Shown here one piece after another: positions 76 to 26,641 of a DNA stretch of 38,725 bases. Position 1 is the first letter of the stretch, and each line of letters starts with the position of its first letter. The DNA lies in the IMG/VR virus record IMGVR_UViG_3300014955_000002, positions 1-38,725 of that record. One strand, written 5' to 3'. The position numbers and the translations under genes are program-made. The stretch is from a virus. The notes under the pieces were generated by a model. The model made no database searches, was not told the DNA's origin, and saw only the letters and a program-made list of their open reading frames with translations.

Positions 76-120
76 GCCACTCTCGCCGGTGGCGGATGCT
101 GCACCACTCGTGCCGGTGGC
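1..120. repeat. Coding tandem repeat with a 27-bp period, left part of the array (unit gccggtggcggatgctgc + 9 variable nt)
   Basis: Units at 4-30, 31-57, 58-84 and 85-111, with a partial unit at 112-120. The variable 9-mers are accactcgt, acccctcca and gccactctc. On the minus strand the array encodes G[TEW][SR]GAASAT repeats. Confidence 0.9.
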
Positions 121-4401: not shown

Positions 4402-5190
4402 ATGTTTGTGAAAAGACTCTTAGCCGCCATTCTTGCCGCCCTGTTGGTCACGGCGGCGTATGCCCATCCCGGCAGAACCGATGCCAGAGGCGGCCACTAC
4501 AACCGCGCCACCGGCGCGTATCACTACCACCACGGCTATCCGGCGCACCAGCACTATAACGGTCAGTGCCCCTATGCCTTCGATGACCGTACCGGCTACA
4601 ATAGCGGCACGGCCTCCGGCTCCTCCTCTGCCGGTGCTTCCTCTCCGGAGAAAATGCCTGTTCTCAGTGCCCATAGGAGGGGCTCCTCCAGCAAGGCGTC
4701 TGACACCGGCAAATCTGCAAGGAGCACTTTGCCCGTTCGCCAAAGCTCCTGGTGGGATTTCATGCGTGAGGAGCTCCACTCCGTGGTCTCCAGTTCTAAT
4801 TTTTGGGTCGGCTTGGCGCAAATCGTTGTGGCCTTCGGCATCCCCGTCCTTGTGTACGAGTGGACTATGCGTTCCCGAAGGCGAAAGGCCGCAGCGTCCG
4901 CCCCGGCTCTCTTACCCGCCCGTCATAAGCTCGATACCACCGACACGGTCTCTGTTTCTTATCACGGCCGTGAGGTCACTCTCTACCGTCTCCCCGCAGA
5001 GGCGATCCTCCGCGTGGGGTATCTGCGTGACACAGAGGAGCTCTTCCTGCAGAGCGCAGACGGCGGCCACATCGATGTTTTCCACGGTGTTCCTCTTGCA
5101 CTCTGCAGCCGCCTGGTTCGCTCCGACGACCCGGACAGGATCTTCCTGCAGGAGATCCTTCTCTGCTGCAGCAGCTCACCGCTGAAGTGA
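4402..5190 (+). CDS. Moron: secreted/membrane protein with signal peptide, YHYH domain, Ser-rich linker, one TM helix and a cytoplasmic KTSC-like domain
   Basis: RBS GAGAGGAGG; start ATG 4402 or in-frame GTG 4408. KRLLAAILAALLVTAAYA signal, then GGHYNRATGAYHYHHGYPAHQH (YHYH motif). TM helix FWVGLAQIVVAFGIPVLVYEW followed by RSRRRK. C-terminus LRVGYLRDTEELFLQSADGGHIDVFHGVPLALCSRLVRSDDPDRIF matches the KTSC pattern. Opposite strand to the surrounding early genes. Confidence 0.8.
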   Translation: MFVKRLLAAILAALLVTAAYAHPGRTDARGGHYNRATGAYHYHHGYPAHQHYNGQCPYAFDDRTGYNSGTASGSSSAGASSPEKMPVLSAHRRGSSSKASDTGKSARSTLPVRQSSWWDFMREELHSVVSSSNFWVGLAQIVVAFGIPVLVYEWTMRSRRRKAAASAPALLPARHKLDTTDTVSVSYHGREVTLYRLPAEAILRVGYLRDTEELFLQSADGGHIDVFHGVPLALCSRLVRSDDPDRIFLQEILLCCSSSPLK

Positions 5191-5460: not shown

Positions 5461-5550
5461 TGTGTGATTTATATATACCACACAAATTTTCATTTGTCAA
5501 CACAGTTTGTGTAATTTTTTTCTTGCAATTAACACAATTTGTGCTATACT
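5461..5550. promoter_or_regulatory. Genetic switch: divergent sigma-A promoters with three ACACA/TGTGT inverted-repeat operators
   Basis: Leftward promoter: TTGACA (complement of 5495-5500), 17 nt, TATATA (complement of 5472-5477). Rightward promoter: TTGCAA (5523-5528), 16 nt, TGcTATACT (5542-5550). Operators: acacaGTTtgtgt at 5500-5512, acacaATTtgtgc at 5532-5544 (32 bp centre-to-centre), and tgtgtg-N12-cacaca at 5461-5484 across the leftward -10. Confidence 0.6.
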
Positions 5551-5571
5551 GATTTCACGGAGGTGATTTTA

Positions 5572-5937
5572 TTGCAGTTTAATACCGTCCTTCGCAAATT
5601 GCGGAAAGACCGCGGCCTCACGCAAAAGCAGCTTGCTCTTGCCCTTGGCCTTTCCGAAAGCGCCATCAGTATGTACGAGCGGGGCCAGCGGGAGCCGGAC
5701 TTTGAGACCCTGGAGATCATAGCAGATTATTTCAATGTGGATATGGACTTCCTGACAGGCAGGACTCCTTATTCCTCCCGCATCGTCTCCCTGAATGCCG
5801 CGCAGGCCGGCAGCGGGGAAGCTGCCGGCCTGAACGCGGAGCGCCGTGCCTTCGTGGATCGTGTGAAAGCGTGGGACGATGCTACCTTTCACCGCGTCGT
5901 TGCTGTCATCGACGCGGTACTCGGCGAAAAACAATAG
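5572..5937 (+). CDS. cI-like XRE-family HTH repressor (121 aa) with no S24 peptidase domain
   Basis: TTG at 5572 with GGAGGTG 6 nt upstream (the track start at 5539 has no RBS). HTH: GLTQKQLALALGLSESAISMYERGQREP. First gene of the rightward lysogeny module that ends with the integrase. Confidence 0.85.
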   Translation: MQFNTVLRKLRKDRGLTQKQLALALGLSESAISMYERGQREPDFETLEIIADYFNVDMDFLTGRTPYSSRIVSLNAAQAGSGEAAGLNAERRAFVDRVKAWDDATFHRVVAVIDAVLGEKQ

Positions 5938-5944
5938 CGAGCTG

Positions 5945-6076
5945 TCAGAATGCTCTTTCTTGTGGCACCGGAGGGAGGATGCCCTCCCTCCTCAGCCGCC
6001 GGAGGACCTCCTGAAACTGATCCTCCGTCAGCTGCGCGAGCTTCTTCTCCAGCATAAGCAGATCTTCTCTTTCCAT
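5945..6076 (-). CDS. Possible small ORF (43 aa), paralog of the N-terminus of the 3256..3516 product
   Basis: ATG at 6076 with GGAGGAAAAGGAA upstream. MEREDLLMLEKKLAQLTEDQFQEVLRRLRREGILPPVPQERAF compared with MTKDELLALEEKVARLTEEQFQEVLRRLEGEGIRP. Below the ORF-track cutoff, and it could be a duplication remnant. Confidence 0.4.
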   Translation of the reverse strand: MEREDLLMLEKKLAQLTEDQFQEVLRRLRREGILPPVPQERAF

Positions 6077-6180
6077 TTCCTTTTCCTCCATGTGATTTTT
6101 GTTCCTATTTCTATCTTAGGCGCCGTGCACTGAAAAAGTCCACTGCCCAGCAGGGCATTTACGGCCCTTTCCCGGCAGTT

Positions 6181-6208
6181 TTGACCCTAAAACGAACGAT
6201 GATATACA
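6181..6208 (+). promoter_or_regulatory. Candidate sigma-A promoter for the 6225..7295 gene pair
   Basis: TTGACC (6181-6186), 16 nt, TGaTATACA (6200-6208), lying 17 nt upstream of the ATG at 6225. Confidence 0.5.
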
Positions 6209-6224
6209 AAGGAGGTACTACACT

Positions 6225-6842
6225 ATGTCTGCCATCAGCCAGCTGCAAGCGAATATTGCAGCATACCCCGAAGCGTTCCGTCTTGCCCGGTCCCGGGCCG
6301 GGCTCACCAATGCCGCCCTGTCCGACCTCTCCGGCGTCCCCTACTCCACGGTCCGCAATGCCCAGAGCGGCAATGGCGGCGTCACCGTCGAGCAGGCAGC
6401 CGCCCTGGCGCTTGTTCTGCACATTTCCCTGGATGAGCTCTTCTGCATTCCACGGCCCGAGGAGGACCGCCGGCCTGCGGAGGAGGATCGCCTCCACGCC
6501 CTTGAGCTGGAATTGGCAGAGCGCAACGGCGAGCTTGCCGTTTTGCGTTCTGCCAATTCCAGCTTGGCGGCCCAATATAGGACCTGTGCCCGGATCTTCT
6601 CTTTTTTATCTGTAGTCCTCTGCTTTGTGGTCATGGGCTACCTGTTTTGGGATTTTCGCATTGCCGCCGCCGGGCTCATCGTCGGCGAAACGCCCACCCT
6701 CGGCGCTTGGCTGCTGCTTCTTATCATAGGGGCGGCAGTATTCTTTTCCGGCCGGGAGCTTCTGCACACCGCCGCCCGCTATACGAATCTATCCTCTTCC
6801 CCCGGCACCGTGGACACCCGCGCCGGCAGCCGGAAGCTATAA
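6225..6842 (+). CDS. Membrane-anchored XRE-type HTH protein (HTH + coiled coil + 2 TM helices), 205 aa
   Basis: RBS AAAGGAGGTAC. HTH GLTNAALSDLSGVPYSTVRNAQSG. Leucine-rich coil LHALELELAERNGELAVLRSANSSL. TM helices IFSFLSVVLCFVVMGYLFW and LGAWLLLLIIGAAVFFSG. Confidence 0.8.
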   Translation: MSAISQLQANIAAYPEAFRLARSRAGLTNAALSDLSGVPYSTVRNAQSGNGGVTVEQAAALALVLHISLDELFCIPRPEEDRRPAEEDRLHALELELAERNGELAVLRSANSSLAAQYRTCARIFSFLSVVLCFVVMGYLFWDFRIAAAGLIVGETPTLGAWLLLLIIGAAVFFSGRELLHTAARYTNLSSSPGTVDTRAGSRKL

Positions 6843-6860
6843 AATTTAGGAGGTACAATT

Positions 6861-7295
6861 ATGAAGGACACAAGTGATATGATCATGACCGAGCTTCCCG
6901 AGGAGAAGCTCCATCTTTCCTTCTCTGAGTGGCTTACCCTTTTTCTTGTTTTCTCCGGCGCCGTTGGCGGCGGCTATTCCTGCATCCGCATTTTGGAGCA
7001 CTTCAGCGTGTCCTATGGCATCTGCAGATTGTTCGGTTTCCTTTACTGGGTATTGTATTGCTGTCTGGTGGTATCCCGCCTGCGTACAAAGTCGGATGTA
7101 CAGCGCCTGGAGGACAATGCCTATAACGAGGGTTTTCAAGCCGGGTGTGACCATGAGGCCCCCATCTCCTATGCTGCCGGTGAAAAGCGCGGCTACGACC
7201 GCGGCTATGAAAACGGTTTGTTAGATGGCCGCTCCGACGGTTGGGATCATGGTTACGAGAGTGCCTTAAAGGATCGTCAGGAGGCACAGAAATGA
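6861..7295 (+). CDS. 2-TM membrane protein with C-terminal G[YFW]xxG[YF]xxG repeats (144 aa)
   Basis: RBS TTAGGAGGTAC. TM helices WLTLFLVFSGAVGGGY and LFGFLYWVLYCCLVV. C-terminus AYNEGFQAG / RGYDRGYENG / DGWDHGYESA (a GxxxG-type repeat as seen in FliH/Yae1-like segments). Its stop overlaps the integrase ATG (ATGA). Confidence 0.75.
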   Translation: MKDTSDMIMTELPEEKLHLSFSEWLTLFLVFSGAVGGGYSCIRILEHFSVSYGICRLFGFLYWVLYCCLVVSRLRTKSDVQRLEDNAYNEGFQAGCDHEAPISYAAGEKRGYDRGYENGLLDGRSDGWDHGYESALKDRQEAQK

Positions 7296-8749
7296 CGGAT
7301 TATAAGACCGCCGCCGCGTACATCCGCGTGTCCACCGATGAGCAGACGGAGCTCTCCCCTGCCTCCCAGCTGGTGGAGATACGCAAATGGGGCGCGCAGA
7401 ACGGTTATATCGTGCCGGATGAATATGTGTTTGTGGATGAGGCGAAGTCCGGCAAGAAGACCACCGGCCGCGACAACTTCCGCCGGCTCATCGCCACCGC
7501 CAAGTCCAAGCCAAAGCCCTTTGAGGCGATTTTGCTTTGGAAGTTTTCCCGCTTCGCCCGCAACAGAGACGATGCTGTATACTTTAAGTCTATCCTGCGC
7601 AAGCAGCTGAAGATCGAGGTCCTGTCCATAAAGGAGCCCATCGAGGAGGGAAAGATGGGCGTCATCATGGAGGCCATGATCGAGGCCATGGACGAATACT
7701 ACAGCTTGAATCTGGCGGAGGATGTGAAGCGTGGAATGGAGGAAAATCACCGCCGGGGAAATTGGCAGTCCTCCCCGCCCTTCGGCTATCGCGTCGAGGA
7801 TCACCGGCTTGTCATCGAGGACTCCGAGGCCGTTTATGTCCAGGAGCTTTTTCGGCGCTACCTCCATGGCGACGGTTTTTTCCCCTTGGCCAAGTATCTA
7901 AATGACATGGGCTGCCGCACCCATCGCGGCAGCCCCTTTGAAAATAGGACCGTGGAGTATATTCTCCGCAACCCGGTCTATACCGGGTTGATCCGCTGGA
8001 ATCCCGCCGGCCGCACCCGCCGGGATTACGACAACCCTAATATCGTCCTGGTGCCCGGAACGCACCCGCCCCTTATCACCCGTGAGGAATTTGACGCCGT
8101 GCAGATCCGCATCGCCCAGCAGAAGGCCATCACTCCCTACCGCTCCAAGCCCCTGAAAAAGAATACGGACTGGCTCTCCGGCATCGTGCGCTGCGCCTCC
8201 TGCGGCAGCACGCTGATCTTTTCCGCCCCCCATTATTGGAAGTGTAATAATTTTGTGCGGGGCCGCTGCCGTACCTCCCAGCACATTTCGGCAGAGCTCC
8301 TGAAGGACGCCATTCTCCGCCGCCTGCAGGCGGATGCCTCCACGGCCGAGGATATATCCTTTGAGATCCTCCGGCCCGGCCGCCGGGAGGATGATGTCCT
8401 CTCCGGCCTTCACCAGCAGCGGGCTGCCGCCCAGCGCCGCTTCGACCGGCTCCGGGAGGCCTACCTTGCCGGTGTGGAGACCCTGGAGGAATATAAGGCC
8501 GCCAAGGAGGAGACCGCCCGGCTCATCCAGCAGCTGGATGCCTCCATTGCAGAGGCGGCCTCTGATGCCCGCTCCCGGGCCGACAAGGACGCCCTGCGCA
8601 CAGCCGTCCGCCATACCCTTGCCACGCTCCTGGATGAGGAGGCGTCTACGGAGGCCAAGTCCACCGCCATCCGCTCCATCGCCGAGCGCATCGTATGGGA
8701 CAAGGCCCAAAACACCCTTACCATCCACTACCGCCTCGTGCTGGACTAA
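7292..8749 (+). CDS. int: Large serine recombinase (phage integrase), 485 aa
   Basis: N-terminal resolvase catalytic domain AAAYIRVSTDEQ (Ser nucleophile) and LLWKFSRFARN. Recombinase domain PFGYR...NPVYTG. Zinc-ribbon CASCGS...KCNNFVRGRC. C-terminal coiled coil. RBS AGGAGG 7 nt upstream of ATG 7292. Confidence 0.95.
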   Translation: MTDYKTAAAYIRVSTDEQTELSPASQLVEIRKWGAQNGYIVPDEYVFVDEAKSGKKTTGRDNFRRLIATAKSKPKPFEAILLWKFSRFARNRDDAVYFKSILRKQLKIEVLSIKEPIEEGKMGVIMEAMIEAMDEYYSLNLAEDVKRGMEENHRRGNWQSSPPFGYRVEDHRLVIEDSEAVYVQELFRRYLHGDGFFPLAKYLNDMGCRTHRGSPFENRTVEYILRNPVYTGLIRWNPAGRTRRDYDNPNIVLVPGTHPPLITREEFDAVQIRIAQQKAITPYRSKPLKKNTDWLSGIVRCASCGSTLIFSAPHYWKCNNFVRGRCRTSQHISAELLKDAILRRLQADASTAEDISFEILRPGRREDDVLSGLHQQRAAAQRRFDRLREAYLAGVETLEEYKAAKEETARLIQQLDASIAEAASDARSRADKDALRTAVRHTLATLLDEEASTEAKSTAIRSIAERIVWDKAQNTLTIHYRLVLD

Positions 8750-10453: not shown

Positions 10454-10511
10454 AACAAAAAACCTCCTAAAATGTATTTTGGTCGGCCAACCTATGCTTA
10501 TAGTGTACATT

Positions 10512-10550
10512 AAAAAGGACACGGGAGCGGTTTACTCCCGTGTCCTTTTT
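10512..10550 (-). terminator. Intrinsic terminator ending the long late operon (symmetric, so also functional on the plus strand)
   Basis: aaaaa-ggacacgggag (10517-10527), loop cggttta, ctcccgtgtcc (10535-10545), then ttttt. An 11-bp GC-rich stem flanked by A5 and T5. Confidence 0.8.
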
Positions 10551-10553
10551 GGC

Positions 10554-10748
10554 TCATTTCCGGCTCAGCTTCTCCCTGATGCTGCACAGTATCCTTTTTA
10601 CCGTAGAGCGGGAGCAGTACATTTCGGCCGCGATGTCCTCGATGTACCATCCTCTCCTGTAAAAAAGATCTATCACCCGTAGCTCCCTGTCCGTCCACCA
10701 GGTCCCCTGATCTGCCTGTGCCAGCTTCGCCCATTCGGATTTTTTCAT
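10554..10748 (-). CDS. Small sigma-70 region-4-like HTH protein (64 aa)
   Basis: WTDRELRVIDLFYRRGWYIEDIAAEMYCSRSTVKRILCSIREKL fits the sigma r4/LuxR-type pattern (T.RE..V..L.y..g....IA.....S..TV.r). Last gene before the terminator. Confidence 0.75.
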   Translation of the reverse strand: MKKSEWAKLAQADQGTWWTDRELRVIDLFYRRGWYIEDIAAEMYCSRSTVKRILCSIREKLSRK

Positions 10749-10790
10749 GTGGCGTCACCTCTTTCGTGTGTCGCCCCATGCTTTCACATT

Positions 10791-13700
10791 TTACTTTGAC
10801 AGCACCGGCATCCTTTCACCGGTGCTCTGCGTTCTTCCCGACAGCACCGGCATCTTCTCGCCTCCTCCTTGCACCTCTGCTTTTTTCGACAGTATCGGCA
10901 TTTTTTCCTGCTTTTTTGACAGTATCGGCATGGTCTCCATGTATCTCACACCGCTGTACCACGGCGCTTTGCCCAGGGTTTTTTCGGAATAGCCGTTGGC
11001 AAAATACAGCGCGTTTTTCTGCTCTTCTGTCAGATCCAATGCGTCAATAGCCGCCAGCTTTTCCTCTCTCTTGTTCATTCCCTGCACGGCCTGCCGATAA
11101 AGGTAATACTGCGCAGGTGTTATCCCGGCATCCATCTCAAGCTCCGCCTGGGTGATAAGGTCCCTGTCGCTGGCCAGGTCTGCAAAATAGAGCTCCGCTT
11201 GCTCATCTTCGGAAAGTCCCGAATTCGCAAGGTATTGCATCTTCAGGTAGGCGGCGCTGCCGTTTTTTGTCGATTGCAGGTCCTTTGTGTCGAAATAGTA
11301 GTTGTAGAAGGCATCATAGGCGACGCCGCTTTGCTTTGCGCTTTGTGCCTTGGCGTATACATCCTTGTTGTAGAGCTGCAGCGCGTACTCTGCGCCGAAG
11401 CATTCCCTGTTTGCGTTCCGATAGGCCGTGTCCGCATCCAAGCCGGCGGAAAGATACTTCTCCACCGCCTCCCGGTAAACATCCTCGGCCGCCATGGCAT
11501 TCTTTTGGATACCCGTCACGATGGCCTTCAGCTCTCTTACCTGCCTGAGCTTTTCCTTGTTGTTCAGCTCCCTGGAGGCCTCCACCTCTCTGATCTGCTT
11601 CCAGATGTCCGAGCAGGCCGACTGCTGTTTGCTCCACCACCGGCTTACCACTCCCGCCGCTTCATCGCCTCCGTTTTTTGCATACTTCAGGGCGTTTGCC
11701 TCATCGTAAAAGTCGCCGCTTACCCGGTTGCTGCTCTGCACATCCACCGTGAAGGCCTTTGCCAGCGGGTTTCTTTCTGCTTGGGGCGTCAGCACCGGCA
11801 GCAGGAAGTCTCCCAGCACGCCGCTGTACTGATCCAGCACATAGTTCAGCTTTTTAGGAGAGATGCCCAGCGCCTTGCCTACTGCCTTGGAGAAGTCATC
11901 CGTGCTGCTGTCGTAGCGTTCGCCAGGCGCGTAATTCTGCAGCCGCTGGCTCTCGATGTTGCCGCCGTACCATGTGCGCCCCGGGCTGTCCGGGTTCAGC
12001 AGCTGCGAGTCGATGAGCGCGGAGAAGATATTGCTTGTCAGCGGATTGGCCGGTGCCACCTGGTTTCCCATTGTATTCAGCGTGGATAGGATGTCCACCT
12101 TTTCACCCTTTGCCGCATCCATCACCCGGTCGGCCGCGATCCCGAACAGAGAAAGCTCTCTTCCCTTCGGGATCTTCAGCCAATAGCCGTTTCGCAGCTT
12201 GAACATGTAGTTGGTGTCCTTGTCGCTGTCTCTCAGGTCGTCCCATTCCTCATCGTCATGGTAAAGGAGCGCATTCAGGAGGGCCGGCGCAATGCCCAGC
12301 GCCGCCGCGCGGATCACCAGCTTTGTCCATTCCTTCGCGCCCTTGGTCTCGGCCACCCGCCGGATGAGCTTGTCAAAGCCCTGCACCCCCGGGTTCAGGA
12401 AGGGCACATAGTTGGCATTCAGCACCTTACCCAGCGTGCCGCTTCGGCCGAAGTTTACGGTCACATCCGCCGCTGCATAGAGCGCGTCCGCTCTTGCCGC
12501 CATGTCGCTGACGGTCTCTCCCCGCTGCTTGGCCTCTTCCGCCTTTTCCAGCACGCCGATAAACTCTGCCAGCCGCGGCGCCTGCTCGGCGGCCATGTTC
12601 AGCGCCTCCATCCGTGCCGCGAACTTCCCCAGTTTTCCCTTGGGCTCCCGCACGGTTCCCGTTGCATAGTCGAATACGGAGGAGTATACGCCGCCCATGG
12701 ATTTATAGAGCTGCCAGTATGCGCCTTCGTTGCGGATCTCGTTGATGGCCCGGGGATAGTTTTTCGCAAAGGCCGCCGCGTCGCGGGTATTCAGCCCGGC
12801 GGTCTGCAGGTCTCGGATGATATTCCGCGCCAGGAAGGCGGGATTATAGCCCGTCACCAGGGACTTAAAGAGGTTGTTGGCGCTTCTTGCCATTTTGGTC
12901 AGTCTGTTGCTCTCCCTTGCATCGGGGGAGAGCGCCTTCACCGCGTCAAACAGAGTGTCGTCCACTGTCATCTCCCAGAGCTTCCCATCCATGTACGCCG
13001 TCACCGTCTTGTCCTTTGTCGGCCGTTCCACAGCGGCGTCGTTCAGCGCGTCCGGGTTAAACTCGTAGCGGTGCTGGCTCGCCTCCTTTACATAGCGGTT
13101 GATCTGCTCGGTGTCACCCGCCTGCAGATAGCTGCGCAGCAGCCGGTCTGCGAAGCGGTTTTTGCTGCCCTCTCTCACCACTTTCATGGTCTGCTTTCCC
13201 ATCGCCTGGTGCAGCGGCATCAGGCGGCTGTTTCCGCCCTGGGCCCGTCCCACCGTTTTTCCGATGCGCACGGTGTTCAGCGCCCGCCCTCTTCCGGCGC
13301 CGTCGTCGGTGTTCATCCGCATGGTGGGCACATAGTTGGGATAGTATGTCTTGAGGAAGTCCGCGTCCTCCTGCGTCATCAGCCCGCTGTCCACGCGGTA
13401 TTGCATCAGGTTGTCGATGTATTTCCGCACCTGTGCCTGATACTCGGTAAACTCCGGATGTTCCCGCAGCAGCCGCTCCGCCCGGGCCCGGCTATCCTCC
13501 GCCGTGAACTCGTAGTCAAACACCGGCTTGTCCTTGATGTCCTCCGCCCGGTCCAGCTCCCGCAGCAGCCGTTCCCGTTCTCTGGCCAGCTCCGCGATCT
13601 CCGGATCCGTGTTCTCTGTCATCCGGTGCAGCTGGGCGGCGGTGTCCGTTTTAATGTCCGGGTTGTTGGCATCGAACTCCCGCAGGGCTTCCCGGGCCTT

Positions 13701-16700
13701 CTCCACCTTCTCCATTTTGTTTTTGCTCAAGCTCATGCGCTCGATGTTGTGGAGATCGAACATGTAGGTCTCAAATGCCCGGTAGTAGTCCCCGCCCTTG
13801 GCCCGGATGGGGAGGAACACATCAGTCAAGCTGTCTCCTACCCTCTGCCCTAAAACATTGGTCTGCGCCTCCGTGATCATGTTCACCCCCGCCGAGCTGG
13901 ACGCCCGGGCCTGGTTGTAGAACTGGTATAGGTAGGGGTCGCCCATGGCCTCCGCCAGTTTGGTGACGCTATGGCCGGCATCCACCATCTTGCGATAGAA
14001 GTAGTCCCAGGCCTCCCGTGCCGCCGCTCTGGCGCTCTCCTTCTTTGGCAGGGCTTCATCCAGCACCATGTCGGCGGTCATTTCCTCCTTTGTGCCGATG
14101 CGGTTCGCCTGGTCTTCAAACAAGCTCGCCAGCTCGTCCAGGTCCGCCTGGGTCAGCTGCTCCCTCGTCCCGATCTCCGGCGGCGCCTCCGTTTTCTCCA
14201 GCCCCCGGAGCTTGGCATCATATACGGCGTCCGACAGCGTGTAGGGGTCTCCCGAAAATACATTCTCGTCCCGGGCCAGCTTGTCCAGATAGTCGTCTAC
14301 CTCCGCCCGCTCCGTCTCGGAGAGCGGGCTTTCCGTGCTTTCCGGCGGGGCGTCTTCCCGGTTTTCATAGCCGTACACCTCCTGCCAAGTCATGGCCTCC
14401 GCCGGGTCCGCCTTGTTTTTCCGGATGATGCTGCCGTCCTGCACAAGGGACGGGGCCTCCGCCGTCACCGGCCCGGTGTACTGCCCCTGGATCTCGTCGA
14501 CCCACGCCACATCCTCCAGCGGCACCCGCTTGCTGTAAACGGCTTCTTCGCCCGCGTAGTTTTTTGCCTCCATCTGCGAGGGTGTAACAAACGCGCCCGG
14601 CTCGATCGGATGGCTGCTGTACACGGTGACCTCTCCGCTGTCCAGTGCCTTTTGCACATCCGCCGCCACGAAGTCCGGTGTCACATCGCCGATTCCGCCG
14701 TAATTGTCAATGGCCTCCTGATAGGTCAGAATGTCCTCCGGCGTCTTGATCCAGGTGTGGTTTCCCAACTCCTCGTCAAAGGGATTGGTCTGTTCAATGA
14801 CTGCGAACTGTGCCTCTTTCCTGCCGTTTTCCTGTTTGCTCAGCACTGGCATTTCTTCCGGGATGTATTCCGCGCCCTGCACGGCGGCGCTTTCCTGCAC
14901 CTTCGTCGTTTCGGCATTCAAAAGTGCCTTCCACGCTTCCGCCGTGAGATTTCCGTTTCCTGCATTGACAAGGCGCTGCAGCCCTTCTAAGCCCTCTTTG
15001 CCGTAAACATCTCGGAGGAAGGCCTCCGCCGTATCCGGCGACACAACATCCTGCCTTACCTCCTCCGATACGGCAAGCACCGCGTCCATTGCCGGTGTCT
15101 GCGCGCGCTTCGCGGTGATCTCCGCATCCAGCTCCGCGCTGAGGGCATCGCTCCGGCTGAGCATCTGGTCAAACATGTACTCCGAAATGCTGGGCGGCCT
15201 CGTTTCCTCCGTCCACTTTACCCCCTCCTGGGCAGCCACATTATTTGTCGCACGCTCCGCGCCGCCGGCGAGCGGTTCCGTATTGACACTTTTCTGTCCC
15301 TGTGGTATCATGTGTTCAATAGAGGGCTCGATGTTAGCTACATGGTTGCGCGGTGTTTCCGCGGGCGTGTCTGATGCGACATTCGGGCCTTCTTCTTTTT
15401 TGAAAATCATATTGCCCTGCGCATCTACCGCCTCATGAAGATAGTACCTATTTGCTGTGTCTTTTATGACAATAACTGTTACATATGTTTTCTCTCCTCT
15501 ATATTCTACCGGCGCAGCAAACACAAAACTGTCATATCCCCGCCCTTTCCAGTTCGGTGTATAGTTGATTTGTTTTCCTTTTTCAATTACGCCCGGTACA
15601 GCCGCAGAAAGTTCTATTTTTGCGTTTCCAATTCCGTGCCCGATCATGCTGTTCTTTACCTTTCCTTTTGAAAACAGCACATCTCCAAAACCTTCCCGCC
15701 ATACCTTTCCTCCTATACTCTGAAAAAAATTGTACACCCTTTCTGTAACTTTTCCGTTTTTTCCGATTTCTTCGCCCGTCACACGCACTACCGGCTCCAT
15801 ATTTTCAATAGACTTCATATTGGATTGCAGTAGCCGTAGTGCTCCTTCTGCATCGCTCGTAGTATTATTGTTGAAGGCCTTTGCTGCCTCTCTCTGCTGG
15901 TATGCCTTTCCTTCTGCATCCACCAGCTGCGGCACCTCCACGGTGCCCTGCGTTGTCGTGCCATCCTGCACCGCCGCCGCTTTTCCGGCGCGGATGCCGC
16001 GCGCCAGTTGAGGACTCCCGCCGATAGCGCCCATGGCAGCGCCAAGCAGGAAGTCATAGCCCCACTGTGCCACATCCTCCGGGGAATAGATTTTCCCCTT
16101 CCCCTCATCCAATTTCAAAATACGGTCCGCCAGCGGGTTCAGCAGGTCGCTTGTCACTTCCTCCACGCCTTCGCCCGCCGCATTTACGATCCATGTCAAA
16201 AGCGCTTGTCCGGTGGGATTTCTCGTCATCTTGCCCACCATCTTTTCCACGATCTCGTCTGCCGCCGCGCCGCCGTAGATCTTCGAGAAAGCGCCGAACA
16301 TCTTCTCTGTCATCACTTCGATGCCGGCGCTTTTAAGTCCTGCGATGAACTGCTGCTTTTGGTCTTTTCCCTCCCGGCGCGCCTCGCCCGCCGCTTGACC
16401 ATAGGAGCGCATGCCCATCATGGCAAGGCCGCTTCCCGGCAGCACCAGGTTCGCAATGGCGTCTCCGGCCATTTGCGTGCCCGTCACGCCCATATCTACC
16501 AGGAAGCGCCCCACGGTACCCAGGTCCTCCTTTGCCTCCTGCTGGTACCGCTGAGACTGCTCTGCAAGGCGCGTAGCGGTTTCAAATGTTTTTTGCTGGT
16601 TGCCCTTCCGCTTCTCCCGTCGCTCCTTCTCCATGCGCCGGATGCTCTGGGTCATGTCCGTTCCGTTTTCCCGGTACTCCTTGGCGGCCCGGCCCAGGTC

Positions 16701-17147
16701 TCCAAATCCGGAGAAGGTGCCCAAGCTCTGCTCCCCTGTTACCGGTGTAAACTGTCCTGCGATCTCCGTGATCCCGCCGGCAGCTCCTACTACACCCGAG
16801 GCGATGGTCTTTGCCGCTCGCTCCAGGCCTTTTCCCGCCTTGCTGTAGTTCCCCGCACCCAGGGCCTTGATGTCAGGCAGCTTGTCCACAGCGCTGCTTT
16901 GTGTCCTCTTTTTCTTTGCCGCCAGCTGCGGCATAGTTTCTCTTTTCCCGGCGCTGCTTTCCGCCAGCTGCGGCATGGCTTCTCTTTGCCCGTCGCTGTT
17001 TGCGGCCAGCTGCGGCATACCGTTCCTTGCCGCCGGTGTGTTCTTATTTTTCTCCCCTTTTTGCATAGCAGGCAGGGACGCGCTCCGCGTCCCTGCCTGC
17101 TTCTTTTCGGTTTTCGGGGTGAGATCATCCAAAAAACGATAACCCAT
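10791..17147 (-). CDS. Giant (2118 aa) virion-associated/ejection 'polyvalent'-type protein with terminal peptide repeats
   Basis: Single uninterrupted ORF with RBS TGAGGAGGGCCTATT upstream of ATG 17147. N-terminus has MPQLA x3 (42-nt period). Gly-rich hydrophobic helices (GVVGAAGGITEIAG, LVLPGSGLAMMGM, LLGAAMGAIGG). An embedded low-GC module lies at about 15290-15890. C-terminus has MP[IV]LS x4. No ATPase, polymerase or lysozyme motif recognised. Confidence 0.85.
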   Translation of the reverse strand: MGYRFLDDLTPKTEKKQAGTRSASLPAMQKGEKNKNTPAARNGMPQLAANSDGQREAMPQLAESSAGKRETMPQLAAKKKRTQSSAVDKLPDIKALGAGNYSKAGKGLERAAKTIASGVVGAAGGITEIAGQFTPVTGEQSLGTFSGFGDLGRAAKEYRENGTDMTQSIRRMEKERREKRKGNQQKTFETATRLAEQSQRYQQEAKEDLGTVGRFLVDMGVTGTQMAGDAIANLVLPGSGLAMMGMRSYGQAAGEARREGKDQKQQFIAGLKSAGIEVMTEKMFGAFSKIYGGAAADEIVEKMVGKMTRNPTGQALLTWIVNAAGEGVEEVTSDLLNPLADRILKLDEGKGKIYSPEDVAQWGYDFLLGAAMGAIGGSPQLARGIRAGKAAAVQDGTTTQGTVEVPQLVDAEGKAYQQREAAKAFNNNTTSDAEGALRLLQSNMKSIENMEPVVRVTGEEIGKNGKVTERVYNFFQSIGGKVWREGFGDVLFSKGKVKNSMIGHGIGNAKIELSAAVPGVIEKGKQINYTPNWKGRGYDSFVFAAPVEYRGEKTYVTVIVIKDTANRYYLHEAVDAQGNMIFKKEEGPNVASDTPAETPRNHVANIEPSIEHMIPQGQKSVNTEPLAGGAERATNNVAAQEGVKWTEETRPPSISEYMFDQMLSRSDALSAELDAEITAKRAQTPAMDAVLAVSEEVRQDVVSPDTAEAFLRDVYGKEGLEGLQRLVNAGNGNLTAEAWKALLNAETTKVQESAAVQGAEYIPEEMPVLSKQENGRKEAQFAVIEQTNPFDEELGNHTWIKTPEDILTYQEAIDNYGGIGDVTPDFVAADVQKALDSGEVTVYSSHPIEPGAFVTPSQMEAKNYAGEEAVYSKRVPLEDVAWVDEIQGQYTGPVTAEAPSLVQDGSIIRKNKADPAEAMTWQEVYGYENREDAPPESTESPLSETERAEVDDYLDKLARDENVFSGDPYTLSDAVYDAKLRGLEKTEAPPEIGTREQLTQADLDELASLFEDQANRIGTKEEMTADMVLDEALPKKESARAAAREAWDYFYRKMVDAGHSVTKLAEAMGDPYLYQFYNQARASSSAGVNMITEAQTNVLGQRVGDSLTDVFLPIRAKGGDYYRAFETYMFDLHNIERMSLSKNKMEKVEKAREALREFDANNPDIKTDTAAQLHRMTENTDPEIAELARERERLLRELDRAEDIKDKPVFDYEFTAEDSRARAERLLREHPEFTEYQAQVRKYIDNLMQYRVDSGLMTQEDADFLKTYYPNYVPTMRMNTDDGAGRGRALNTVRIGKTVGRAQGGNSRLMPLHQAMGKQTMKVVREGSKNRFADRLLRSYLQAGDTEQINRYVKEASQHRYEFNPDALNDAAVERPTKDKTVTAYMDGKLWEMTVDDTLFDAVKALSPDARESNRLTKMARSANNLFKSLVTGYNPAFLARNIIRDLQTAGLNTRDAAAFAKNYPRAINEIRNEGAYWQLYKSMGGVYSSVFDYATGTVREPKGKLGKFAARMEALNMAAEQAPRLAEFIGVLEKAEEAKQRGETVSDMAARADALYAAADVTVNFGRSGTLGKVLNANYVPFLNPGVQGFDKLIRRVAETKGAKEWTKLVIRAAALGIAPALLNALLYHDDEEWDDLRDSDKDTNYMFKLRNGYWLKIPKGRELSLFGIAADRVMDAAKGEKVDILSTLNTMGNQVAPANPLTSNIFSALIDSQLLNPDSPGRTWYGGNIESQRLQNYAPGERYDSSTDDFSKAVGKALGISPKKLNYVLDQYSGVLGDFLLPVLTPQAERNPLAKAFTVDVQSSNRVSGDFYDEANALKYAKNGGDEAAGVVSRWWSKQQSACSDIWKQIREVEASRELNNKEKLRQVRELKAIVTGIQKNAMAAEDVYREAVEKYLSAGLDADTAYRNANRECFGAEYALQLYNKDVYAKAQSAKQSGVAYDAFYNYYFDTKDLQSTKNGSAAYLKMQYLANSGLSEDEQAELYFADLASDRDLITQAELEMDAGITPAQYYLYRQAVQGMNKREEKLAAIDALDLTEEQKNALYFANGYSEKTLGKAPWYSGVRYMETMPILSKKQEKMPILSKKAEVQGGGEKMPVLSGRTQSTGERMPVLSK

Positions 17148-17159: not shown

Positions 17160-18350
17160 TCAGTCGATCCATCCGTTCTGCCGCAGGGTGCTGTTAAGGT
17201 CTCTGCGCTGGGCTTCGCTCATCTGATCCCATACCTGCCGGATAATGCGGTCCGACACGGCATTCATCCCCCGCGATGCATACATCATGATATTGTTTTT
17301 TACGGCGGAGTAGTTTTGCAGCCCCGCGCCCGCGGCACTCTGCGTACCGCCGGTGCTTTCCTGCTGCGTCGGCACATATCCGCCTCCAGAGGCGCGGGAT
17401 TCCGTCCGCTTATCCTCCAGGTAGGCGGCATAGCGATCCTGCACCTGTGCCAGGTAGTTGGCCATCTGCTCTGCCACCTGTGCGTTTCCGGCCTGCCGGG
17501 CCGCCGTGATGGCCCTTTGCAGCTGGTCGATGGTGTCGTTGTACTGCAGCTCCAGCTCCGTCAGGTCGTTTTGATACTCCGCCTCCGTGGCGATCCGCTG
17601 GCTGTCTGCCATGCCGCCGTACACGCCGCCGGCCGCCAGCTCCTGGTCCATGTTCCGCTGGGCCCGCATTTTGTTGATGTAGGCCCGCCGGGCGGCGTCC
17701 TCGAAGCTCACGCCCGCCTTGGCGATCTGGGCATTGTAGTCGTCCACGGCCTGCTGCACCTGGGCGCTCACCGCGCTCTGCAGCCGGTTTTCGTAGTCGT
17801 TGGCCCCGATCCGCTTCAGGAAGGTCTCATAGTCGCCCTCCTCCTGCATCCCGCCCCGGTACTTCTCCCAGGCCTCCGCCGCGCTCAGGCCACCGGCCGC
17901 CGCCGTGGAGTTCTGCCCCCACTTGCCATCCGCCGAGGCCCCGTAGTAGCTCTGCAGCTCTCTGATCTGCGCCTCGCTCAAGCCGCCGTTGTTGTACCCG
18001 CTGTAGCTTGGCGTACCGCTGTACCCGCTGTAGCTCGGCGTACTCACGGCGGGGGTGGTGTTCTTCTTGGTGTTCACCCTGTCCGCCATGGACCCGCCGG
18101 AGGGCTTGCTGTAGCTGCGGGGATCATTGGCCGCCGTCAGGTTGGGGTTGGCGGCGCTGGAGCCGGAGGACGGCCTGGTGTAGCTGTTGGTCTTGGTGGC
18201 CGGCTTCTTCCCCGCCGCCTTGGCCACGATGTCCGCCACGGTGTTTTTACCGCCCTGCACGGCGTACCCGCCGGGATTGGTGCTGACGGTCTTTCCGGTG
18301 TTTCTCTTGGCGGCCAAACGCTCAGCCGCCGTGCTTCCGTATTTTGCCAT
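17160..18350 (-). CDS. Hypothetical virion/ejection-associated protein (396 aa) with low-complexity N-half, PSYSGY repeats and a degenerate PG-binding-like motif
   Basis: RBS AGAAAGGAGTAAGGT. TPSYSGYSGTPSYSGY. IRELQSYYGASADGKWGQNSTAA resembles the PG_binding_1 core (DG.fG..T). Coiled-coil C-half. Confidence 0.75.
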   Translation of the reverse strand: MAKYGSTAAERLAAKRNTGKTVSTNPGGYAVQGGKNTVADIVAKAAGKKPATKTNSYTRPSSGSSAANPNLTAANDPRSYSKPSGGSMADRVNTKKNTTPAVSTPSYSGYSGTPSYSGYNNGGLSEAQIRELQSYYGASADGKWGQNSTAAAGGLSAAEAWEKYRGGMQEEGDYETFLKRIGANDYENRLQSAVSAQVQQAVDDYNAQIAKAGVSFEDAARRAYINKMRAQRNMDQELAAGGVYGGMADSQRIATEAEYQNDLTELELQYNDTIDQLQRAITAARQAGNAQVAEQMANYLAQVQDRYAAYLEDKRTESRASGGGYVPTQQESTGGTQSAAGAGLQNYSAVKNNIMMYASRGMNAVSDRIIRQVWDQMSEAQRRDLNSTLRQNGWID

Positions 18351-18353: not shown

Positions 18354-19172
18354 TTACTCCTTTCTTAAAAGTTTTCCCCAAGTCCCCTTCCCGGCGATGC
18401 CGTCCGCGCCAAGCTTGTACTTGGTCTGGAACGCCTTCAGCGCCGCTTCTGTGTTGGTACCGAAGAGACCGTCCGCAGCGCCGCAACTGTACCCTCGGGC
18501 ATTCAAAGCCGCCTGAAGGGTCTTGACATCCTCTCCCTGCATCCCCTTTTTGAGCATCCGCACGGCCATAGGCACGGTTTTCTCCGCCGGGGTGGGTTCG
18601 GGGGCTGCCGGCTCGGGGAGAACATAGATAACGCCGAAATAGTCGCACACCGCCTTGCAGGTCTCCTCGGCGATGAGGGGCATATTCGCCACCAGCCACT
18701 TTGCCGATTCCTCGTTGTCGTGGAACTCGAACTCCGGCAGCACGGCGGGGGCCACGGGGCTGCGGAGCTCGATGAGGTTCCGGCTCTCCACCACCCGCTC
18801 CCCTCTTGTGCCGGGGGAAAGAGGCGCGATGCGCTCCAGGATGAGCTTGGCGATCCTCCGGCTCTTGGCGCTGGGGTAGCAGTGGATCCGCGTCCCCTGT
18901 ACGGTGCCGTCAAAGCCGTTGGTGTGCAGGGCGATGTAGAGGTCAGCCGGCCAGTCGTTGGCCCGGCGCACCCGGCGGTACACCGCGCCCTTGCCCGTCT
19001 CCTGGTCATTTTTCACGGCAAAGCCGCAGCGCAGGAGCGCCGCCTCCAGGAGGTCGGCGCAGCGGCACATCTGCTCGTGCTCGTTGGTGGTGTGGCCGTT
19101 ATAGAGGGCCGCCGGGTGGTAGGTGTTGGTGCTCCTGTCCTCCGGGGACAGGTAGACCTTCGGGGAGGCCAT
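18354..19172 (-). CDS. Endolysin: N-acetylmuramoyl-L-alanine amidase (Amidase_3-like) + C-terminal PG_binding_1 domain
   Basis: LYIALHTNG...FEFHDN amidase motifs. C-terminus GEDVKTLQAALNARGYSCGAADGLFGTNTEAALKAFQTKYKLGADGIAGKGTWGKL. Its ATG directly abuts the holin stop. Confidence 0.9.
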   Translation of the reverse strand: MASPKVYLSPEDRSTNTYHPAALYNGHTTNEHEQMCRCADLLEAALLRCGFAVKNDQETGKGAVYRRVRRANDWPADLYIALHTNGFDGTVQGTRIHCYPSAKSRRIAKLILERIAPLSPGTRGERVVESRNLIELRSPVAPAVLPEFEFHDNEESAKWLVANMPLIAEETCKAVCDYFGVIYVLPEPAAPEPTPAEKTVPMAVRMLKKGMQGEDVKTLQAALNARGYSCGAADGLFGTNTEAALKAFQTKYKLGADGIAGKGTWGKLLRKE

Positions 19173-20357: not shown

Positions 20358-21929
20358 TTAAGTTGTGGTTTCTATCGGGAGCATTTGTGCCGTGCCTGTT
20401 TTATAGTAGATCCAAGGAAAAGAAGCGGTTCCGGTATCGTCTAAAACTCCATTTAGCCCGCCCGGGTCTCCACTCCATGCAACAGACGGCTCAGGATCAA
20501 GCTCGCCAAGGTTAAGCGTAATAGTTGCATCTTCATTTACTATACCTGAAACCGATTCAATGCCAGTTCCAAACCATCCGGGAATCTCAACGATAACAGT
20601 CATCCCATCACCACTTAATACACCCGTTGGGTTCCAAACCGCGTTATTTTGTACCAACCAGTACCCAACGGTTTCCCCATCCAGCTCTCGATTTAGCCAT
20701 TCATCGGGTGCAAAAGTGCAGTTCTCCGGAAGGATTTTCTTTTCACCTGTACTATCATCTACCTTTTCAAGAATCTGAAACACGCTCAAGGATTGTGTTT
20801 CAACATTTACATAGAACGAGGCAAGAGCCCCTGTTTGGAGACCGGAAACATTGGTGGCCGACATGTGGGTCATAATGTCATACGCCCCGTTGTCCGTTAT
20901 TTCAGCAGAGGGGACTTTAGTTCCTGTATTTTTGTATTTCAGATGATCAAAATAACAGTTTGCGTCCAAGGTGATGCCAGGAGCATACCCGATATATCCG
21001 TTTTTGTCTTTCAAATCAAATGTCACAGCATGGTGGCTTACATTTGTAGCACTTATATCGTCTTGACCCAGCATTTTAGCTTTTACTACAACCTGCGCAT
21101 AAGACACACCATCGTATCCAGCATCAGGGCGAACATCAATCGCGCCGGTGTCGGGGAAAAAGAGAGTGCCATCGCTACCAATTCCATCTGCTGTAACAGT
21201 AATCGCTTTCTCCTGCAAATTTCCTCCGGCTACATCCACCTGCAAGTTCACCTTGCTCATGCCGCTTTTGCCGATGGTGGGTACAACAGTCTGTGCGCCC
21301 TTTTCCGTGATGGTGACGGCCTTTTCCTCCAAGCTCTCCTCAGCCAGCAGAGCATAGAACGGCCCCTCCTTGATAGTGTTGGGCTGCTGGATGCCTATGA
21401 TCACAGCGCTGGTGTCTGCGATTTTGGCATAGCCCGTTACGGTGCCCTCTGCGTCCTGTGTCAGGTAGCCCCAGCCGATCTGCGTGGTAAACTCCGGGAG
21501 GTCGCTGCCGTTTGCTTCGTAGAAAATTTCCTTCAGGTTGGCGCTGGTCACTTCCTCCCAGCAGTAGAGCAGAGTCACCCTGTTGCCGTCGGTCTCTATG
21601 CCGGTGAGATTTTTCAAAACCTCCAGCCGAACAATGGGTTTGGTCGTTTTCCCTTCCTTTGCGGCGTATACCATGCCGACCACATTCCCGTCATCTGCAA
21701 CACCGCTCGGCGCAGTGAAGGTGCCGTCTCCGGCGTTCCATGTAAACATACCCGCATCTGCGTCCGTCAGCTCGTGGGTAGGAGGGTCCAGGAGGGTGTA
21801 GTTGATGATCGGCCGCTGGACATAGTAGGTGTCGCCGCTGCTATCTTCCTTGGGCACGGCGATGGTACCTATTTCCGTATAGGGCTGCTCCTGGTCATAC
21901 AGGTCTTTTAATTTAATATCCTCTGCCAT
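20358..21929 (-). CDS. Putative receptor-binding / tail spike-fibre protein (523 aa) with a low-GC C-terminal half
   Basis: TAATG stop/start coupling with the upstream gene. Position in the fibre module. The distal 3' portion (about 20358-21250) is visibly AT-richer than the rest of the genome. Confidence 0.7.
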   Translation of the reverse strand: MAEDIKLKDLYDQEQPYTEIGTIAVPKEDSSGDTYYVQRPIINYTLLDPPTHELTDADAGMFTWNAGDGTFTAPSGVADDGNVVGMVYAAKEGKTTKPIVRLEVLKNLTGIETDGNRVTLLYCWEEVTSANLKEIFYEANGSDLPEFTTQIGWGYLTQDAEGTVTGYAKIADTSAVIIGIQQPNTIKEGPFYALLAEESLEEKAVTITEKGAQTVVPTIGKSGMSKVNLQVDVAGGNLQEKAITVTADGIGSDGTLFFPDTGAIDVRPDAGYDGVSYAQVVVKAKMLGQDDISATNVSHHAVTFDLKDKNGYIGYAPGITLDANCYFDHLKYKNTGTKVPSAEITDNGAYDIMTHMSATNVSGLQTGALASFYVNVETQSLSVFQILEKVDDSTGEKKILPENCTFAPDEWLNRELDGETVGYWLVQNNAVWNPTGVLSGDGMTVIVEIPGWFGTGIESVSGIVNEDATITLNLGELDPEPSVAWSGDPGGLNGVLDDTGTASFPWIYYKTGTAQMLPIETTT

Positions 21930-22870
21930 TACTTCACCTCCAAAATTCTTCCCAGCACGCCATCCTGCTTCACAGTCGCACTATATACCTGCTTTACCAC
22001 CAGCAGGCCCCCGTACTGCACCGGGTCGATCCAGCCCACCGCCTTGCCAGATACCTGACTTACGAGTTCTATCTTCGGGGACAGCATTGCAGCCATCGCG
22101 TCCACAGTCCCGGATTTGACTTGTGTCTTCACCACCAGATGGCCGGCAATTTGACCATCGGTCATTGTCAGCGTTTCCGGCTGTATCACGCTTCCCACGG
22201 TCAGCTCAGATGTCGCAGCGCCCTCCGCGCCGTCACCGGCTCCACCCTCTGCCAATGCGGTGATCTGCTCCATGCCGTCAAGCAGTCCGTCTGCAAAAAG
22301 CACTGCGTCGCCGGCAGAAGCGGTCTGCACCAGCTGAAGCGCTAACGATGCTTCATCGTCTACCAGCGTTGCTGCTACAGCAGGCGGGATCGTTGTCTCC
22401 ATCGTCAGTTCATCGCTCACTGTGCCAGTCGGAACTAAGTCCAGTGCCACCGCCAGAGGTACAGGCGTGGTGAGCTTCAGCAGCTCCTCGATCTGCCGCT
22501 TGTTGACGATAATGCCCTTGCCCAGCGCCGTATATTGCAGCAGCAGGTTCTCCAATGCCGCGCCGTTGGATGTTCCTGCCGCCGTGGACTCCGCCGCAGT
22601 CAGCAGCGTCAGCAGCTCCCCTGCGCTTCCGTCTGCCGCCCCGTTGGCCTGCGCCGTTGCATCGGTGCTGAAGCCAATAAGCCCCGCTGCCGTCCCCGGC
22701 ACCAGCACCGCCGCCACGCCATCCGCTGTGTTCTCAAAGGCCAGCTGCGCGTGGGCCTCGCCGGGGATCTTCTTGACCCCGCTCCACACCAGCACGCTGC
22801 CCAGATACACCTCGCTATGGTAGCGCCCGTCCATATACACCGCGCCGATCTGCCCGTTGAGATAGATCAT
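21929..22870 (-). CDS. Hypothetical Ala/Gly/Thr-rich tail-module protein (313 aa)
   Basis: Track ORF with its ATG 4 nt after the upstream stop. Composition is typical of fibre or appendage proteins. Confidence 0.7.
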   Translation of the reverse strand: MIYLNGQIGAVYMDGRYHSEVYLGSVLVWSGVKKIPGEAHAQLAFENTADGVAAVLVPGTAAGLIGFSTDATAQANGAADGSAGELLTLLTAAESTAAGTSNGAALENLLLQYTALGKGIIVNKRQIEELLKLTTPVPLAVALDLVPTGTVSDELTMETTIPPAVAATLVDDEASLALQLVQTASAGDAVLFADGLLDGMEQITALAEGGAGDGAEGAATSELTVGSVIQPETLTMTDGQIAGHLVVKTQVKSGTVDAMAAMLSPKIELVSQVSGKAVGWIDPVQYGGLLVVKQVYSATVKQDGVLGRILEVK

Positions 22871-22873
22871 CTG

Positions 22874-23089: not shown

Positions 23090-23103
23090 GTCTCTGCACC
23101 TCC

Positions 23104-24753: not shown

Positions 24754-24757
24754 GTGC

Positions 24758-26638: not shown

Positions 26639-26641
26639 CTC

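Follow-up and report, generated by a model that had tools for sequence, protein, structure and literature searches.

The Ltp proteins and HK97 gp15 act on the tape measure protein and in this way keep phage DNA from entering. To our knowledge, a molecular recognition rule is still lacking for these exclusion proteins and for SieA of P22, all of which act on ejected phage proteins. Here we report on a viral stretch of 38,725 nucleotides, the whole of IMG/VR record IMGVR_UViG_3300014955_000002 (hereafter the window), in which a gene at 10791-17147 (minus strand) encodes a giant protein of 2118 residues with a short peptide motif repeated near both ends, and a gene at 4402-5190 (plus strand) encodes a predicted membrane protein of 262 residues with a single copy of the same motif. 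The nearest demonstrated case is P22 SieA, a prophage protein of the inner membrane that prevents injection of DNA, with escape mutations in the C-terminal parts of the ejection proteins gp16 and gp20, as set out in the accessible text of Leavitt et al. (2024, PMC10883804). The Ltp family of Streptococcus thermophilus phage TP-J34 consists of surface-exposed or membrane proteins of prophages (PMC3952083). Polyvalent proteins, found in phages and conjugative elements, are described in the available part of Iyer et al. (2017, PMC5512222) as giant, multi-module proteins with LPD domains.

The giant gene of the window lies downstream of an endolysin gene (18354-19172, minus strand) and an open reading frame (ORF) of 396 codons (17160-18350, minus strand), and only small ORFs follow it on the same strand. 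Its product matches LPD38 at residues 1632-1794 (92.1 bits) and LPD3 at residues 476-569 (29.5 bits); as both matches pass the Pfam cut-off, which is 27 in each case, the gene encodes a polyvalent protein. A search at E<=1e-10 yielded 726 homologues. Isolated phages contributed only distant matches, of 21-28% identity, and no close relative was found among them; some of these matches, in Burkholderia and Ralstonia phages, are annotated as 'DarB-like antirestriction protein', and others are in B. megaterium phages. The likeness to polyvalent proteins such as P1 DarB thus lies in the LPD domains, the modular giant architecture and the annotation of some distant matches, and term searches of the accessible text of PMC5512222 turned up neither repeat motifs at termini or junctions nor matching motifs in neighbouring membrane proteins. 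Compared with Protein Data Bank sequences, the giant gave no match at E<=1 and so has no relative with a solved structure; it showed no homology to known ejection proteins, and its PHROGs matches are only to families of unknown function.

In BLAST comparison with the homologues, the N-terminal block and the C-terminal two-thirds of the giant are conserved, and modules in the middle are swapped between homologues; the block borders fall at residues 390-421, 622-637, 747-776 and 877-930. An AlphaFold2 model of residues 1150-2118 had a mean predicted local distance difference test score (pLDDT) of 48.7, too poor for a fold search, and was used for tail disorder only: residues 2067-2118 have a pLDDT of about 25 and no secondary structure, while the preceding helical domain scores mostly 72-89.

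Near the N-terminus of the giant are three MPQLA units (16920-17018, minus strand; residues 44-48, 58-62 and 72-76), whose MPQL codons, at 17007-17018, 16965-16976 and 16923-16934, are spaced by exactly 42 nt; Tandem Repeats Finder reports the same period at 16914-17019. An initial annotation, made from the letters of the window, had located these units and their period correctly but had the protein start with them, whereas the first lies at residue 44. The C-terminal tail (10794-10958, minus strand; residues 2064-2118) follows a conserved ..APW anchor, is predicted to be disordered and carries four MP[IV]LS units in its last 46 residues (10917-10931, 10887-10901, 10839-10853 and 10797-10811, minus strand; MP[IV]L codons at 10920-10931, 10890-10901, 10842-10853 and 10800-10811). 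Here too the coordinates given earlier were accurate, except that the last unit does not run into the stop codon, one Lys codon lying between. The motif was rightly assigned to both ends of the protein, but copies inside it had been missed. One of these, EEMPVLS (14838-14858, minus strand; residues 764-770), starts the conserved C-terminal two-thirds, where the alignment blocks begin at residues 747-776. A degenerate copy, VPQLV within VEVPQLV (15921-15935, minus strand; residues 405-409), sits at the border of the conserved N-terminal block and the LPD3 module (block borders at residues 390-421), and a weak copy, AEAPSLV at residue 898, is also on a block border. The junction motifs at residues 405 and 766, and the weak one at 898, therefore coincide with the module borders of the giant.

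The membrane protein, which we call the YHYH protein, is made up of a signal peptide, a YHYH domain, a Ser-rich linker, a transmembrane helix and a KTSC-like cytoplasmic domain (topology predicted). The NCBIfam model YHYH_alt (NF033223) matches its residues 19-43 with 41.3 bits against a cut-off of 30; its KTSC score is 13.5 bits, below the cut-off of 25, KTSC being precomputed for most homologues. Hydrophobic segments lie at residues 1-19 and 134-152, with five K/R residues after the second. In the AlphaFold2 model the linker that holds the motif (residues 58-114) has a pLDDT below 50 and the C-terminal domain is mostly above 90. The protein is thus predicted to be located in the membrane with the motif-bearing linker outside the cell. 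Its gene lies on one strand with those of the integrase and regulators and in the same order, co-oriented with the whole lysogeny module (5539-8749, plus strand) and opposite to the late genes, and is syntenic in the related loci L017 and L052. A scan for promoters and terminators around the gene recognised none, and the protein has no match in PADLOC, Pfam or PHROGs that would link it to known exclusion or defence families.

The copy in the YHYH linker, EKMPVLS at 4648-4668 (plus strand), is the same heptapeptide as the third C-terminal unit of the giant, and is written in different codons (gagaaaatgcctgttctcagt in the YHYH gene vs gagaagatgccggtgctgtcg in the giant gene; five of seven differ). 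On composition, exact EKMPVLS is expected 1e-5 times in the 10,012 residues that the window encodes outside the giant, so that the earlier judgement that a seven-residue identity by chance is very unlikely holds; the looser pattern MP[IVQ]L[SA] is expected 0.019 times in the same residues and occurred at least once in 41 of 2000 shuffles. That annotation had also proposed selection at the peptide level rather than duplication of DNA, and this is borne out by the synonymous codon differences and by the local origin of the YHYH copy. In alignment A3, EKMPVLS stands in for STTP--SV of the homologues, around an invariant Pro, which indicates that the motif was made in place by a two-residue insertion and substitutions. 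The linker around it is otherwise unconserved. The only other MPxL within a gene of the window is the portal C-terminus ADEMPGL, ending at the stop codon (30231-30245, minus strand); related portals end in ..GGGEMA or ..GGGEGV, so this occurrence is taken as chance.

To what extent is the motif a property of the giant family? Among the 120 best of the 726 homologues, units of the form [LV]xMPxL[GKEA] are present close to the N-terminus and at junctions in nearly all, with three to five further copies at the extreme C-terminus in most. The MPxL sites fall at residues 31-64, at junctions near residues 390-460, 660-730 or 930, and/or at the C-terminal end. The N-terminal units, at the same place as in the window protein, are of MPKL, MPVL, VPKL and PLLLT types, and where the window protein has VPQLV the homologues have V[QR]MP[TA]LE or VRMPRLV. 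After the invariant ..APW, their tails are arrays of three to six short repeats, the flavour of which is lineage-specific: MPVLG/K, MP[IV]LS (the window phage), PAPV[IL]G, NPF[LVT]R (often NPFVRAMQ), MPVVK with APVFVRV, S.YL.YLA, YERALAVLRRRR or RRKAAVAYIRG. The termini and inter-module linkers of the giants, which are predicted to be disordered, thus carry a multivalent short linear motif with the core x-P-hydrophobic-hydrophobic. The C-terminal array is hypervariable in flavour and the adjoining domain is conserved, the 420 residues next to the tail being 67-75% identical to the window protein (alignment A1) while tail flavour varies. Two further tails were recorded: that of L026, a Dysosmobacter metagenome-assembled genome, reads DKFGLDKFGLDKFGIGR after IMPKLTGG, and that of L011 repeats QRRKAAVAYIRG three times.

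Exact EKMPVLS is found in one of 74 giants compared, that of the window. The YHYH proteins of related phages, compared where their genes lie within 10 kb of a motif-bearing giant, can nevertheless be set beside their own giants. At the linker position of the window's motif, those of L004, L005, L017, L052 and L081 have VEMPVLR, and the giants of the same phages have VEMPVIG as junction copy and MPVLG in the tail. The YHYH copies are 4-6 kb away from those in the giant genes. Where YHYH genes adjoin giants without repeats (L020 and L087), they have no motif.

A second membrane protein is found in relatives of the window phage, which itself has no such gene. It is encoded by a small gene convergent to the giant gene, 27-482 bp beyond the end of the latter, at the prophage edge and adjoining host genes. 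From the N-terminus, the protein has a zinc ribbon (WYTCPxCG..CxCG), a K/R-rich stretch, one transmembrane segment, a coiled coil, a Cys-rich domain and a short tail. Nine K/R residues lie on the N-terminal side of the transmembrane segment vs two on the other side, and the tail therefore probably faces outwards. These zinc-ribbon neighbours gave nothing above cut-off in PADLOC, Pfam or NCBIfam. Homology of their Cys-rich C-terminal domain to the C-terminal domains of YHYH variants was considered and dropped, as there is no hidden Markov model match.

The tail of the zinc-ribbon neighbour ends in the flavour of the giant next to it. In 36 giant-neighbour pairs, of which 22 are unique and which fall into four flavour classes, neighbours of MPVLG giants end in ..EMPVLGN or ..RMPVLGN at the stop codon, those of MPVVK giants in ..EMPVVTTKS or ..KVPVVTTKS, those of NPFLRAMQ giants in ..NNPFLRAMQTP, and those of YLQYLAA giants in ..SSYLQYLIEQNK; an NPFTRARMG giant is paired with ..SNPFTRARMGKTN and an NPF[TL]RAR giant with ..NNPFIRARNSG. 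Over the 22 unique pairs, the mean longest common substring is 4.3 residues for true pairs vs 2.4 across flavours, and the true flavour pairing alone, one of the 24 permutations of four flavours, reaches the observed score. Comparison of neighbour motif codons with the closest giant copy (39 codons at 7 loci) gave 19 synonymous and no non-synonymous differences, which argues that identity is kept at the peptide level and is not that of a DNA repeat or terminator stem. Recent conversion is thereby excluded as the source of the match, except perhaps in L073, where the shared 9-mer is nearly identical at the DNA level. A DNA-level cause located between the two convergent 3' ends (inverted repeat, terminator or invertible segment) was also considered, and is ruled out by the synonymous codon differences and by the distant copies.

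Two unrelated membrane proteins, encoded on the strand opposite to the late genes, thus carry a single copy of the giant's flavour on a segment predicted to face outwards, and the match between giant and membrane-protein motifs exceeds chance and extends across this phage group. The co-occurrence that the initial annotation had suggested looking for is therefore found in the termini and junctions of the giants, in the YHYH linkers of MPVL phages, and in the co-varying zinc-ribbon tails of four flavour classes.

What might such a match be for? Our tentative preference, held with slightly less than even confidence, is that the membrane proteins of the prophages imitate a motif by which the giant docks, the likeliest purpose being superinfection exclusion. 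The giant would travel inside the virion and on ejection pass into the envelope of the next host, where its motifs would engage a partner on which channel formation or DNA entry depends. The membrane proteins of a lysogen would present this peptide on the membrane surface and vie for the giant's partner, or alternatively would bind the incoming giant motif-to-motif; in either case superinfecting phages of the same flavour would be excluded. An arms race among related phages might then drive diversification of flavour and lock-step change of the copies. Mimicry had been put forward in the initial annotation, with the motif as a docking or cleavage signal; the comparative evidence supports mimicry, and cleavage is not supported, no protease having been found with PHROGs or Pfam.

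Compared with the described exclusion systems, the proposal shares with P22 SieA a membrane protein that would act on ejected virion proteins. SieA has no sequence similarity to the membrane proteins of the window or its relatives and belongs to a phage of a Gram-negative host; the accessible text of PMC10883804 reports no motif shared between SieA and its targets, whereas here the motif is copied and co-varies and the function is what we infer. The Ltp proteins and gp15 have other folds and no target mimicry has been described for them, and the present phage is without a recognisable tape measure protein. Exclusion aimed at ejected virion proteins is therefore already known, but in the literature searched we came upon no account of exclusion proteins that mimic a motif of their target, of polyvalent proteins with repeat arrays at their ends, or of a copied, co-varying peptide as a recognition principle.

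Several observations weigh against mimicry for exclusion. MPxL of any kind occurs in only 4 of 120 members of the YHYH family, so that the motif as a general trait of that family is ruled out; the MPxL-bearing members P0171 and P0183 adjoin giants without repeats, and the contexts of members P0159 and P0135 included no giant. Lack of conservation in homologues, which the initial annotation had named as grounds for rejecting the idea, thus applies to the YHYH family at large only, the motif being present in the giant-bearing phages. The YHYH linkers of L056 and L072 read YVLP[LQ]LK, which is only loosely like the MPQL/MPTL of their giants. Among the zinc-ribbon neighbours, 6 of the 22 unique pairs join MPVLG giants to a neighbour end ..EKPVM[VS]N, in which only the P-V core is kept. 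When the fine type of the giant was predicted from neighbours ending in MPILSN, MPVLSN and MPVMGN the prediction failed, these giants having ordinary MPVLG/K tails; the match accordingly holds for the core flavour only, and conservative positions do not co-vary. The outward orientation of the neighbour tail is derived from the positive-inside rule alone, and the presence of the giant in virions and the expression of the membrane proteins in lysogens are both presumed. Finally, no partner was identified among the capsid, portal and protease.

The search for a partner drew on two related phages, L088 (tail PAPV[IL]G) and L089 (tail MPVLG), whose compared virion and lysis proteins are 88-99.7% identical. 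Apart from the tail and one junction, the two giants share about 95% identity, and that junction copy reads VEIPVIGE in L088 vs VEMPVISE in L089; as it changes with the tail, the copies within a protein all keep to one flavour. The capsid protein had been a candidate for a flavour-specific receptor, but at 99.7% identity between phages of different flavours it cannot be one. The portal C-termini of MPVL-type phages have no motif. The YHYH copy faces outwards on prediction, as probably does the zinc-ribbon copy, so the partner is to be expected where the outer side of the membrane is accessible. Candidates are components of the host envelope and parts of the proteins ejected by the incoming phage, the giant among them. 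The same two phages also differ in a tail-protein region (4042-6444 in L089 vs 3666-6487 in L088), occupied by one 800-residue gene in L089 and by a 241-residue gene on the other strand plus a 348-residue gene in L088. This region possibly encodes a receptor-binding protein, and the difference, a single case, could reflect a link of host receptor with flavour or be coincidence.

The same data bear on other explanations. One, which we consider unlikely, is that the motifs are processing sites, where a protease (the metallopeptidase module of some giants, or a host envelope protease) cuts linkers, trims tails and frees modules, the membrane proteins being co-substrates (for instance in shedding of the YHYH domain) or competing substrates. 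The motifs do lie exactly at module junctions and termini, the giant of L023 has HExxH modules beside its VRMPRLV junction, and proteolysis of polyvalent proteins has already been proposed in the available part of PMC5512222. The window giant, however, has no HExxH, a prohead protease was sought in the window with PHROGs and Pfam and none was found, and the head proteins (scaffold-like protein and capsid) contain no MPxL. Cutting four to six sites 10-16 residues apart at the extreme C-terminus would serve no evident purpose, a protease of co-varying specificity would be needed for flavours as unlike one another as MPVLG, NPFLRAMQ and YLQYLA, and the prediction places the YHYH copy outside the cell, whereas virion interior and cytoplasm are inside. 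Sortase signals (LPXTG, a hydrophobic segment and a basic tail) are not matched either: the motifs have Leu, Ile or Val where Thr is, and are followed by a stop codon or spacers rather than by a membrane anchor. Another reading is contact of like with like: in the amyloid signalling pairs, fungal HET-s/NWD2 and bacterial BASS, the same short motif is found on the termini of adjacent gene products. As in giant and neighbour, it differs between lineages and matches within a pair, which is the signature used to find pairs of this type, and both membrane proteins described here have predicted cytoplasmic domains. The giant and the membrane protein could on this model meet motif-to-motif, the membrane protein being not a passive competitor but a sensor that signals via its zinc ribbon or KTSC domain, with abortive infection, induction or kin recognition as conceivable outcomes. 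We regard this as rather improbable: the motifs are of 5-9 residues and usually contain Pro, vs about 20 residues in amyloid motifs, no NLR-like, pore-forming or other effector partner is encoded nearby, one partner is a giant probably packaged in the virion, and self-association is at most surmised.

Short peptides in disordered termini also address proteins to HK97-fold shells, as in the cargo-loading peptides of encapsulins and the capsid-targeting sequences of T4. The motif might likewise be a packaging signal that docks the giant to the procapsid interior, portal or scaffold, the membrane-protein copies being unrelated to packaging. Its terminal, multivalent and predicted disordered nature would suit this, and a packaged polyvalent protein needs some targeting signal, as the accessible text of PMC5512222 implies. 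In the encapsulin and T4 systems, though, there are no membrane-protein copies, while the capsid here does not follow flavour, the portals of MPVL-type phages lack the motif, and co-varying copies on predicted outward segments of two unrelated membrane proteins would be left unexplained, all of which makes a packaging role very unlikely. Another explanation would have the repeats, being multi-copy, C-terminal, short and lineage-specific, act as precursors of phage-specific signalling peptides, released by proteolysis and sensed by a phage receptor in the manner of arbitrium; the membrane-protein copies are on exposed C-termini, as this might lead one to expect. We give it scant probability, as the secreted pre-peptide and adjacent TPR-type receptor of arbitrium/RRNPP systems were not found in the window (its helix-turn-helix proteins have 132-213 residues, and no gene for a small secreted pre-peptide or a large TPR-type receptor was seen), the giant has no signal peptide and the internal junction copies do not fit. 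Equally remote is the explanation that the matches have no function and arose by chance together with gene conversion where the 3' ends of convergent genes abut. Those ends are 27-482 bp apart and form an imperfect inverted repeat, and the 9-mer of L073 would fit, but the codon comparison shows synonymous differences only, the YHYH copies are 4-6 kb distant and arose in place, the exact heptapeptide is far beyond chance expectation, and the junction and N-terminal copies are conserved family-wide.

If mimicry for exclusion is the correct reading, its recognition rule would be a peptide of 5-9 residues from the probable target, copied onto the excluding protein and changing together with it, which makes specificity readable from genomes and testable by peptide swaps. 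A role would emerge for the termini and linkers of polyvalent proteins, which form a large class that is little understood, and part of the repertoire of prophage 'moron' membrane proteins in the abundant, hard-to-culture Oscillospiraceae of the gut would be explained. A bolder extension, which we think has a lesser chance of being right, is that the tail flavours (MPVLG, NPFLRAMQ, YLQYLA, MPVVK, PAPVIG and others) serve as peptide 'barcodes' by which phages of gut Oscillospiraceae fall into groups of exclusion or kin recognition. A prophage would show its own barcode on its membrane proteins and recognise or block only giants with the same barcode. Such groups would be a surface-level counterpart of repressor immunity groups, would evolve by arms race and could be reprogrammed by swapping 5-9 residues; if flavours do define exclusion groups, they would also matter for host range and for competition among phages in the gut, and might be used to engineer phage resistance or escape.

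The genomic setting of the giant is that of a complete circular temperate phage of Oscillospiraceae, apparently with a short tail. The termini of the window overlap exactly over 75 nt, which indicates a circular genome of 38,650 bp, and relatives occur as prophages in genomes of the Oscillospiraceae Vescimonas, Dysosmobacter and Lawsonibacter, the L022 prophage being that of Vescimonas sanitatis MH37-1. The gene map was built from GC-position statistics and PHROGs. On the minus strand it has the packaging genes for terminase large subunit (35549-37252), terminase small subunit (32150-32584), portal (30231-32153) and major head protein (27317-28330), a scaffold-like acidic coiled-coil protein (28771-29667), and virion and tail proteins (20358-27298). 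Neither PHROGs nor Pfam recognised a tape measure, tube or sheath gene in the window, and there is a weak match to the SU10 adaptor family, so the virion is likely short-tailed. Apart from the YHYH gene, the plus strand carries the lysogeny module, with a helix-turn-helix regulator (5539-5937), a helix-turn-helix regulator with membrane segments (6225-6842), a membrane protein (6861-7295) and a serine integrase (7241-8749), assigned from PHROGs, hydropathy and synteny.

The second of these regulators, of 205 residues, has an N-terminal helix-turn-helix, a coiled coil and two C-terminal hydrophobic segments; its gene, between the other regulator and the integrase, is conserved and syntenic in L004, L017 and L052, and from these features the protein looks like a membrane-anchored repressor-like regulator. 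The replication initiator (32999-33790, minus strand; phrog_3584, with the L018 homologue matching Pfam REP_ORF2-G2P) is encoded between the genes for the large and small terminase subunits, an unusual place. A 27-nt tandem repeat, GCCGGTGGCGGATGCTGCACCACTCGT, occupies window positions 4-121 and 38628-38725, joined over the circular junction; about five copies are left after removal of the 75-nt assembly overlap, near small ORFs upstream of the terminase genes, and they could be iterons, or a packaging or origin element. The 396-residue protein encoded before the giant (17160-18350) is kept upstream of every related giant gene, with 48-62% identity in the loci checked and lengths of 396-528 residues, and its segment GLSEAQIRELQSYYGASADGKWGQNSTAAAGGLSAAEAW resembles a peptidoglycan-binding repeat and likewise a segment of the YHYH variant P0182. 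Directly 3' of the giant gene is a 64-residue ORF (10554-10748, minus strand), which by eye resembles a small helix-turn-helix or sigma-region-4-like regulator (..YCSRSTVKRILCSIREKLSRK); an alternative reading at this position is an overlapping 89-residue ORF at 10510-10779.

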